Shown here: piece by piece, positions 11,271 to 12,571 of the stretch
Layout of the letters: each line of letters starts with the position of its first letter
Numbering within the stretch: the first letter of the stretch is position 1
Assembly: GCA_018648805.1 (NCBI GenBank)
Contig: JABGQM010000037.1
Coordinates: forward strand, 1-32,000
Length of the DNA stretch: 32,000 bases
Source of the DNA: Verrucomicrobiota bacterium
GTDB lineage: Bacteria > Verrucomicrobiota > Kiritimatiellia > UBA8416 > JABMPJ01
Direction: 5' to 3'
Notes under the pieces: generated by a model
Seen by the model: the letters and a program-made list of their open reading frames with translations, nothing else
Database searches by the model: none
What the model was told of the DNA's origin: nothing
Program-made: the position numbers and the translations under genes

Positions 11271-12287
11271 GTGTGCGTGACTGAAGCCGCCATAGAGCCG
11301 ATCGATTCGAGATTTAGCTGGCGCGACCGCCTGCAGGGGTGGCGCGTGCGCTGGGGCATCGGGCGTATGCGCTTTTCCGTGCGGCCCGGCCTGTATGCCT
11401 TGAACGAACCCACACCCGAGTCGGACGTCTTCGTCACGGCCAACTACAAGATGAGTGTGGATCATCTGCGTCGCGCCCTGGCGGGACGTCAGGGGTGGCT
11501 CCTCGTCCTTGATACGCATGGAATCAACGTTTGGTGTGCAGCGGGCAAAGGCACCTTCGGAACGGATGAGTTGGTCGAGCGAATCATTGAGACCGGGCTG
11601 ACGCGACAGGTTAGCCACAACAAGCTCATCTTGCCGCAGCTGGGCGGGGTGGGGGTCGATGCGGCTGCGGTGGGCAATGCGTGTGGCTTCACGGTACGCT
11701 ACGGCCCGGTACGTGCGGCGGATCTGCCGGCCTATCTCGACAACGGGTATCAGGCCGACGAGGCGATGCGGCGCGTCCGGTTCGATCTTGCTGACCGGGC
11801 GGCGCTCGTACCGGTTGAGATCGTCAATGCGGGCAAATTTATCCTGCCGGCCATGGCGATCCTATTCGTGCTCTCCGGTCTTTCACTGCGCGGATTCTCC
11901 GTAGCGACGATGGTCAGCCAGGGATCGGCGGCGGTGTTGGCGCTCGGGTTGGCATGGCTGGCCGGGACCGTAGCGGGACCGCTGCTACTGCCATGGTTGC
12001 CCGGACGCATGCTCTCCCTCAAAGGGGCCATGGCGGCGCTGCTGCTGGTTGGGCTCTTCTCCATTCGGATCCTGCCGGGATTGACCGGGTCGCTTGACCT
12101 GGCCGCTTTTTGGCTGGTGGTGCCGGTGGTGGCTTCATTCATCATGATGAATTTCACGGGCGCGACGCCCTATACATCGCCCTCGGGCGTGCGTCTTGAG
12201 ATGAAGCGGTCGGTTCCGCTCCAAGCGGCCGGTGCGGTGATGGCCCTGCTGCTCTGGTTGGCCCAGCGCGTGGTGGAGGTGTTGTGA
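11271..12287 (+). CDS. hgcA: HgcA, corrinoid protein of mercury methylation
   Basis: RWGIGRMRFSVRPGLYALNEPTPESDVFVTANYKMSVDHLRRAL; LLVLDTHGINVWCAAGKGTFGTDELVERI (NVWCAAGK codons 11526..11549); VSHNKLILPQLGG; VRYGPVRAADLPAYL; about 5 TM helices; MMNFTGATPYTSPSGV. GTG start (11271 or 11277). Confidence 0.97.
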   Translation: MCVTEAAIEPIDSRFSWRDRLQGWRVRWGIGRMRFSVRPGLYALNEPTPESDVFVTANYKMSVDHLRRALAGRQGWLLVLDTHGINVWCAAGKGTFGTDELVERIIETGLTRQVSHNKLILPQLGGVGVDAAAVGNACGFTVRYGPVRAADLPAYLDNGYQADEAMRRVRFDLADRAALVPVEIVNAGKFILPAMAILFVLSGLSLRGFSVATMVSQGSAAVLALGLAWLAGTVAGPLLLPWLPGRMLSLKGAMAALLLVGLFSIRILPGLTGSLDLAAFWLVVPVVASFIMMNFTGATPYTSPSGVRLEMKRSVPLQAAGAVMALLLWLAQRVVEVL

Positions 12288-12571
12288 TCCGCTACATTGA
12301 CAACGTGACCACCCTGCAGCTGGAGGCGGCAAAATGTGTTGGCTGCACCCGCTGCACACAGGTCTGCCCGCATGGCGTATTGAAAATGGATGGCAAGCGG
12401 GTTGAAATTATCGACCGCCATGCGTGCATGGAGTGTGGGGCCTGTGCCAAGAACTGTCCCACCGACGCCCTCACGGTCGATTCCGGTGTCGGCTGCGCCA
12501 TCGCCATGATTATCGGTTCCCTGCGCGGCACCGAACCCACCTGTGAGTGCCGTGGCGGCACGTATTGTTAA
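12284..12571 (+). CDS. hgcB: HgcB, dicluster 4Fe-4S ferredoxin partner of HgcA
   Basis: 95 aa; CVGCTRCTQVCP and CMECGACAKNCP clusters, GVGCA (Cys71), C-terminal TCEC...YC. GTG start overlaps the hgcA stop (GTGA). Confidence 0.96.
   Translation: MIRYIDNVTTLQLEAAKCVGCTRCTQVCPHGVLKMDGKRVEIIDRHACMECGACAKNCPTDALTVDSGVGCAIAMIIGSLRGTEPTCECRGGTYC

Follow-up and report, generated by a model that had tools for sequence, protein, structure and literature searches.

To our knowledge, hgcAB is the sole known genetic marker of microbial methylmercury production. The mercury (Hg) methylation pair of Pseudodesulfovibrio mercurii (Desulfovibrio desulfuricans) ND132 was reportedly characterised by Parks in 2013 and by Smith in 2015, and fermentative bacteria of the Planctomycetes-Verrucomicrobia-Chlamydiae (PVC) group, for example Kiritimatiellales, are thought to contribute a considerable part of the hgcA found in seawater poor in oxygen and in lakes rich in sulfate. 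Here, the genes hgcA and hgcB are described in a 32,000-nucleotide stretch of a Verrucomicrobiota contig (JABGQM010000037.1, positions 1 to 32,000), which was analysed at its full length and is called the window throughout. In purified HgcAB of ND132, the methyl donor is S-adenosylmethionine (SAM) and not methyltetrahydrofolate (methyl-THF), and the iron-sulfur (Fe-S) clusters reduce cobalamin to Co(I) (Zheng 2024, PMC11588087). A model based on coevolution has the flexible tail of HgcB acquire Hg(II) and hand CH3Hg+ to Cys73 (Cooper 2020, PMC7305189). For the lineage of the window, work on Lake Mendota has named hgcA+ Kiritimatiellaeota/Kiritimatiellales among abundant putative methylators (Peterson 2020 preprint), and hgcA+ Kiritimatiellales have been reported from the Baltic Sea (PMC7536318) and the Black Sea (PMC10469668). 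The pair is already known in the Kiritimatiellia lineage; its identification by a preliminary description, made from the letters of this DNA, is correct and is not surprising.

Gene pair and family membership

The window very probably carries a bona fide hgcAB operon that is intact, is inherited on the chromosome and belongs to a marine-type Kiritimatiellia (PVC) bacterium. Both open reading frames (ORFs) lie on the + strand, exactly where the preliminary description had placed them. The features of the pair are as follows.

11271 to 12287, + strand: hgcA, 338 amino acids (aa), GTG start; putative corrinoid-dependent, membrane-anchored Hg methyltransferase subunit
11373 to 11738, + strand: corrinoid-binding domain of HgcA, residues ~35-156; its homologue is the C-terminal domain in the large subunit of the corrinoid iron-sulfur protein (CFeSP)
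11526 to 11549, + strand: cap-helix motif NVWCAAGK of HgcA, residues 86-93, with Cys89 at 11535-11537
11808 to 12275, + strand: transmembrane (TM) domain of HgcA, five helices, residues ~180-335, from hydropathy and an AlphaFold2 (AF2) model; contains the conserved MNFTGATPYTSPSGV loop
12284 to 12571, + strand: hgcB, 95 aa, GTG start; ferredoxin partner with two [4Fe-4S] clusters
12335 to 12460, + strand: two CX2CX2CX3CP motifs of HgcB, C18/21/24/28 and C48/51/54/58
12494 to 12496, + strand: Cys71 of HgcB, equivalent to Cys73 of ND132, 12 residues past the second motif
12542 to 12568, + strand: Cys-rich tail of HgcB, CECRGGTYC (C87, C89 and C95)

Against the NCBIfam equivalog hidden Markov model (HMM) NF040863 (HgcA_corrinoid), HgcA scores 405.3 bits (E 1.8e-121), and the alignment runs end to end, with residues 10-334 on profile positions 3-324 of 325. 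A score below the cut-off had been set beforehand as a refuting result for HgcA; the value found is well above that cut-off of 275. The next ORF had been described as a 95-aa dicluster ferredoxin with HgcB features, and it bears both cluster motifs and scores 122.8 bits against NF040864 (HgcB_ferredoxin; cut-off 99, E 3.9e-36), residues 3-95 lying on positions 1-93 of 93. Pfam returned generic Fer4 domains for HgcB. Judged from the two sequences, the matches are far beyond chance. The family itself is large, with 419 representatives at 50% clustering at E <= 1e-30 and with thousands of matching 90% clusters.

The high-stringency criteria of the Hg-MATE protocol are the cap motif N[V/I]WC[A/S][A/G/S]GK, the motif C(M/I)ECGA, location on the same contig and an unfused pair. 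The window has NVWCAAGK and CMECGA, the latter within the second HgcB cluster motif (residues 48-53), on one contig and in two separate genes. A fused HgcAB-like protein was considered and rejected, as the ORFs are separate and the fusion model NF043039 gives 193 bits against a cut-off of 285. The start of hgcB overlaps the stop of hgcA by 4 bp (GTGA), which implies co-transcription and coupled translation.

Public records suggest another protein altogether, namely a carbonyl-branch CFeSP (gamma subunit of the acetyl-CoA decarbonylase/synthase (ACDS) complex, or CdhD/AcsC-like) acting in acetyl-CoA synthesis. Close relatives are named acetyl-CoA decarbonylase/synthase complex or acetyl-CoA synthase subunit gamma in Joint Genome Institute (JGI) and NCBI data; CdhD is the sole Pfam match of HgcA (residues 35-124), and the sequence search of PDB chains returned the CFeSP chains 2h9a_A and 4c1n_A, which match residues 35-156 at E ~4e-10. 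We give this identity next to no chance, and it was set aside on HMM score and domain architecture. The ACDS gamma model NF003195 scores 56.5 bits against a cut-off of 306 and covers residues 36-158 only, on profile positions 323-445 of 450. HgcA has no N-terminal Fe-S or TIM-barrel part and has five TM helices instead, the cap position holds Cys89, with no Cys at the corresponding place in the aligned 2h9a sequence, and genes for carbon monoxide dehydrogenase/acetyl-CoA synthase (CODH/ACS) were not found within the 32-kb window. Grouping with CFeSP proteins that lack the TM domain, which the preliminary description had named as its other ground for withdrawal, was not seen.

The nearest HgcA relatives, among them P0004, P0006 and P0121 (MBL7076015.1), carry acetyl-CoA synthase gamma-type names or are called “hypothetical protein”, and the exact HgcA protein of the window is already present in JGI data under the latter name. 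Such names are a systematic misannotation of HgcA, wrong or uninformative, in JGI and in older NCBI records of metagenome-assembled genomes (MAGs).

All peptides quoted in the preliminary description were found in the translation: GINVWCAAGKGTFGTDEL with Cys89, GLYALNEP, TANYKMS, LPQLG, YGPVRAADLPAYL and MNFTGATPYTSPSGV. In an alignment of 90 homologues, N86, V87, W88, C89, A91, G92, G94 and F96 are invariant, and the TM-loop motif is largely invariant, as are other positions. By comparison with ND132, Cys89 is the counterpart of Cys93, the thiolate ligand of cobalt there.

The nearest genome matches for HgcA are all Kiritimatiellae/Kiritimatiellia MAGs. They are the Black Sea 750 m MAG BS750m-G19 (L001, JADHWE010000003.1; 85% identity), taken as the closest genome relative, the Arabian Sea MAG Arabian11_MAG_24 (L002, JASLOA010000010.1; 86%) and Arabian Sea MAG_70 (L003; 68%). 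Three further loci were compared, two on unbinned JGI metagenome contigs (L005 and L006) and one on the Kiritimatiellia MAG contig JAOZSS010000123.1 (L004). At the place of the hgcA start codon, L001 has GTG and L002 has ATG, in both cases right after an in-frame TAG, which supports the start used here. A longer hgcA ORF is ruled out in the window because an in-frame TAG lies just upstream.

HgcA is short (335-338 aa) in the sub-clade formed by the window, L001 and L002, and is 358-369 aa in the sister group of L003 (9920-11008) and P0005-P0016. About 20-25 N-terminal residues are missing (window 11271-11340) relative to the sister group and most homologues, whose consensus has a CC pair near the N-terminus.

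Structure model, conserved cysteines and proposed cycle

The AF2 model of HgcA was computed from the alignment of 90 homologues, is free of cofactor, and has a mean predicted local distance difference test score (pLDDT) of 92.6 and a predicted TM-score (pTM) of 0.86. An alpha/beta N-terminal domain is followed by five long helices at residues 180-201, 211-242, 248-271, 274-293 and 304-335, with pLDDT mostly >90. Hydropathy gives five hydrophobic segments that agree with these helices, so the earlier estimate of about five TM helices holds by both routes. The top Foldseek match in the PDB is 9a0b_A (E 1.4e-21, 46% identity over 329 columns). This deposited entry is the 2020 integrative model for ND132 HgcAB and the sole HgcAB entry in the fold library. 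The next matches are CFeSP large subunits, over the N-terminal ~127 columns only (root-mean-square deviation 3.2-3.5). By sequence, no experimentally solved HgcA or HgcAB was found among PDB chains; only CFeSP was.

In HgcB, the cluster motifs are CVGCTRCTQVCP, starting at residue 18, and CMECGACAKNCP, starting at residue 48. All eight cluster Cys are invariant in the alignment of the clade (6/6 members), as is Cys71 (6/6), whose ND132 equivalent, Cys73, is essential according to mutagenesis cited in PMC7305189. The invariant element of the tail is C87-E-C89. At position 94, the window has Tyr (TAT, 12563-12565) and four of the five clade relatives have Cys (TGT or TGC). The C-terminal ends read TYC in the window, TCC in L001, L002 and L006, SCC in L005 and TCD in L003. 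At least one C-terminal Cys is thus retained in the window, and the vicinal pair is variable within the family.

By homology with ND132, the pair would be expected to act as a mercury methylase in the following cycle. HgcA would be anchored in the membrane by its five C-terminal helices and would hold a corrinoid in the cytoplasmic CFeSP-like domain. The two four-Cys [4Fe-4S] clusters of HgcB would relay low-potential electrons and reduce the cobalt of HgcA to Co(I). SAM would then methylate Co(I), and the resulting CH3-Co(III) would have the Cys89 thiolate for its lower axial ligand. Finally, the methyl group would pass to an Hg(II) bis-thiolate, which the Cys-rich tail of HgcB, together with Cys71, probably brings in, and CH3Hg+ would be released. 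All residues that an ND132-type cycle calls for are present in HgcA and HgcB of the window.

Several observations weigh against this assignment. As of the Hg-MATE protocol paper, cultured hgc+ organisms with experimentally validated activity are confined to Desulfobacterota, Firmicutes and Methanomicrobia, and no paper was found that links Kiritimatiella glycovorans to methylmercury. In the cofactor-free AF2 model, the cap segment (residues ~81-100, 11511-11570) has a pLDDT of 75-80, and DSSP gives no helix at residues 81-97, which bear the motif. The TYC end of HgcB has no vicinal Cys-Cys pair. A scan for promoters and terminators gave no signal above shuffled expectation. For the coil-like cap segment, the likely cause is the absence of the corrinoid from the prediction. 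As to the tail, mutating either Cys94 or Cys95 alone leaves ND132 HgcB unaffected, and 95% of activity is lost only when both are mutated (PMC7305189). Because the single mutants stay active, and because L003 likewise has a single terminal Cys, the Tyr94 substitution is expected to be tolerated, and the missing pair is unlikely to matter.

Inheritance, gene neighbourhood and apparent decay in a relative

Proteins flanking hgcAB are 79-96% identical to their counterparts in Kiritimatiellia MAGs and are collinear with them. The common order is an MnmL/YtqA-type radical SAM gene, a nucleoside diphosphate (NDP)-sugar dehydrogenase gene, hgcA, hgcB, a variable slot, the oxaloacetate decarboxylase (OAD) alpha and beta genes and a Na/Pi transporter gene; the same order is found on the JGI contigs L005 and L006. 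In a neighbour-joining tree of 93 HgcA sequences, HgcA of the window falls within a 10-member clade that holds all three Kiritimatiellia MAG HgcAs. Pairwise dN/dS values are 0.09-0.13 for hgcA and 0.07-0.10 for hgcB. The dS values of hgcAB against L001 and L002 (0.85-0.99) equal those of the genes on either side, for NDP-sugar dehydrogenase and for OAD (0.88-1.03). Because of these dN/dS values and the equality of dS with the flanks, we conclude that hgcAB is vertically inherited and has co-diverged with its chromosomal neighbourhood, and the same values point to purifying selection. Family membership, integrity, conservation and selection are established for this pair.

GC content of hgcAB is 0.60-0.62 and GC at third codon positions (GC3) is 0.76, both matching the flanks with no foreign signature; the GC3 pattern marks hgcA and hgcB as real genes in a genome of ~61% GC. 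Recent horizontal acquisition finds no support in the flank-like GC and GC3, the equal dS and the synteny in L001, L002, L005 and L006.

The same data bear on whether the pair might be a paralogue of HgcAB-like type, or a copy in functional decay that has lost Hg methylation, on the pattern of the fused HgcAB-like proteins. Relaxed selection could be read from the TYC end in place of TCC and from L004, which retains fragments only of hgcA and hgcB; hgcA is also patchy within Kiritimatiellaeota (Peterson 2020 preprint). We consider decay or paralogy very improbable. The genes are separate and full-length (the fusion model, as given above, stays below its cut-off), they contain no frameshifts or stops, the essential residues are intact, and the dN/dS of hgcAB (0.07-0.13) is comparable to that of the neighbouring radical SAM gene (0.13-0.15). 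ND132 mutants that lack a single C-terminal Cys also stay active (PMC7305189).

In L004, positions 2998-3650, which correspond to window positions 9570-15925, hold four short collinear fragments between the radical SAM gene and the OAD alpha gene. Two derive from the NDP-sugar dehydrogenase gene, one from hgcA (100 bp, ~35 codons, residues ~285-319) and one from hgcB (90 bp, ~26 codons, residues ~64-93 and, in a shifted frame, RGGTCC*). The junctions lie at microhomologies, the clearest being the 12/13-bp repeat CGGTCG(G/A)TTCCG, present in both hgcA and hgcB. On these sequences, L004 looks like a snapshot of hgcAB loss by serial deletions, with an assembly artefact as the other possible origin. 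Genuine deletion is suggested because k-mer assembly does not collapse at repeats of such short length. Loss of hgcAB has been inferred from phylogenies (Peterson 2020 preprint; PMC10083202), and the decay in L004, if real, would be direct evidence for the deletion process invoked for the patchy distribution of hgcAB.

A third question is whether a genuine HgcAB could have a native substrate other than mercury in a fermenting host, Hg methylation being a side reaction. No mer genes or metal-responsive regulators lie nearby in the window, purifying selection acts in open-water organisms exposed to trace Hg, and the sub-clade links hgcAB to the NDP-sugar dehydrogenase gene, with joint decay of both in L004. 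The physiological role of HgcAB is debated, and an antimicrobial role has been speculated (PMC10083202). We regard a non-mercury substrate as unlikely: nothing in the data points to one, and the dehydrogenase linkage is absent in L003. The idea also concerns the whole family and not the locus in the window, and it is compatible with a capacity for methylation. A narrower form, in which the NDP-sugar dehydrogenase gene and hgcAB are a block inherited together, dispensable as a unit and serving a non-mercury role such as envelope or exopolysaccharide chemistry, is highly doubtful.

The preliminary description had named two neighbouring genes, and both are confirmed.

12589 to 13740: Fe-S aldo/keto reductase (AKR), by family match
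15924 to 18939: Na+-translocating OAD, alpha and beta subunits, by family match

The window also encodes an iron-containing alcohol dehydrogenase (Fe-ADH) and 2-keto-3-deoxy-6-phosphogluconate (KDPG) aldolase, and no respiratory genes are among its annotated genes. This fermentative set (Fe-ADH, KDPG aldolase, OAD and AKR), the lack of respiratory genes and the identity of the nearest syntenic genomes as Kiritimatiellia MAGs together support the earlier suggestion of an anaerobic, fermentative host of non-classical lineage.

Between hgcB and the gene for a SrkA-type kinase, the window has the Fe-S AKR gene and an NHL-repeat gene (12589-14774). The AKR and NHL genes are absent from the slot after hgcB in L001, L002, L005 and L006. 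The slot holds AKR, NHL and kinase genes in the window, the kinase gene alone in L002, L005 and L006, and a glutamine synthetase gene in L001. Because slot content differs among relatives, the AKR is not a conserved partner of hgcAB; the insertion of the AKR and NHL genes into this variable slot is lineage-specific. Among the compared loci, no conserved accessory genes were found beside hgcAB, and the neighbourhood in L003 is wholly different.

Two genes lie 3-5 kb upstream of hgcAB: a uroporphyrinogen decarboxylase (URO-D)-like gene (5795-6886; MtaA/CmuA-type fold family, weak Pfam match) and a DUF1638 gene (7701-8450). Both families often accompany corrinoid methyltransferase systems. DUF1638 is present between the inositol monophosphatase (IMPase) and radical SAM genes in the window and absent there in L002, L004 and L006; the URO-D-like gene has no match in L002.

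The spacer of 45 nt (11226-11270) that separates the stop of the NDP-sugar dehydrogenase gene from the start of hgcA may form a GTTTGT...ACAAAC hairpin (-17.1 kcal/mol, z -2.2). In L001 (z -0.4) the core is kept with one compensatory change (GTTTGC...GCAAAC), and L002 folds differently; with three sequences compared, the case for a hairpin before hgcA is weak. A scan with Rfam at gathering thresholds gave one tRNA only and no regulatory RNA or riboswitch.

At the left edge of the window (1-2000), a tRNA-Thr(CGT) gene at 156-231 is followed by a stretch of lower GC (53-56% vs ~61-67% elsewhere). ORFs 263-751 and 912-1307 have no family matches, and ORF 1574-1933 has a weak match to phrog_31723 (function unknown), the sole match in a PHROG scan of this edge. 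The low-GC edge may be what is left of an integrated element.

With its intact genes, confident model and syntenic relatives, the complete 32-kb locus offers a clean template for heterologous testing. It is of environmental relevance and could be the template on which a PVC-type HgcAB is functionally tested for the first time.

Comparison with known systems

The pair of ND132 resembles that of the window in its two separate genes, in the corrinoid domain of HgcA with NVWCAAGK and its Cys, and in the five-helix TM domain; in both cases, HgcB is a dicluster ferredoxin of 95 aa that bears an additional conserved Cys and has a tail rich in Cys. The hosts differ, ND132 being a sulfate reducer and the window coming from a fermentative PVC bacterium, and the tail ends in Cys-Cys in ND132 and in CECRGGTYC in the window. 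The N-terminus of the window HgcA is also shorter, with 338 aa against ~358-369, and up to ~400, in L003, P0005-P0016 and most homologues.

Fused HgcAB-like proteins, such as that of Pyrococcus furiosus (NF043039), have both an HgcA-like and a ferredoxin-like module in common with the window pair. In the window, however, these are two separate genes, which score 193 and 57 bits with NF043039 against the cut-off of 285. Fusion-bearing organisms for which tests were made do not methylate Hg (Hg-MATE protocol paper).

CFeSP large subunits (AcsC/CdhE type; 2h9a, 2ycl, 4c1n and 4djd) of the Wood-Ljungdahl pathway share a homologous Rossmann-like corrinoid domain with HgcA. Unlike these, HgcA is without a TIM barrel or N-terminal Fe-S domain and has a TM domain and the cap Cys. 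By analogy with ND132, its methyl donor would be SAM and not methyl-THF, and CODH/ACS partners are absent from the window.

The closest described loci are those of the L001 and L002 MAGs, with 85-86% identity in HgcA and 84-87% in HgcB. Their hgcAB occupies the same site, between the NDP-sugar dehydrogenase and OAD alpha/beta genes, with dS equal to that of the flanks. The window differs from both in its extra AKR and NHL genes after hgcB, in the DUF1638 gene between the IMPase and radical SAM genes, and in Tyr94 of HgcB.

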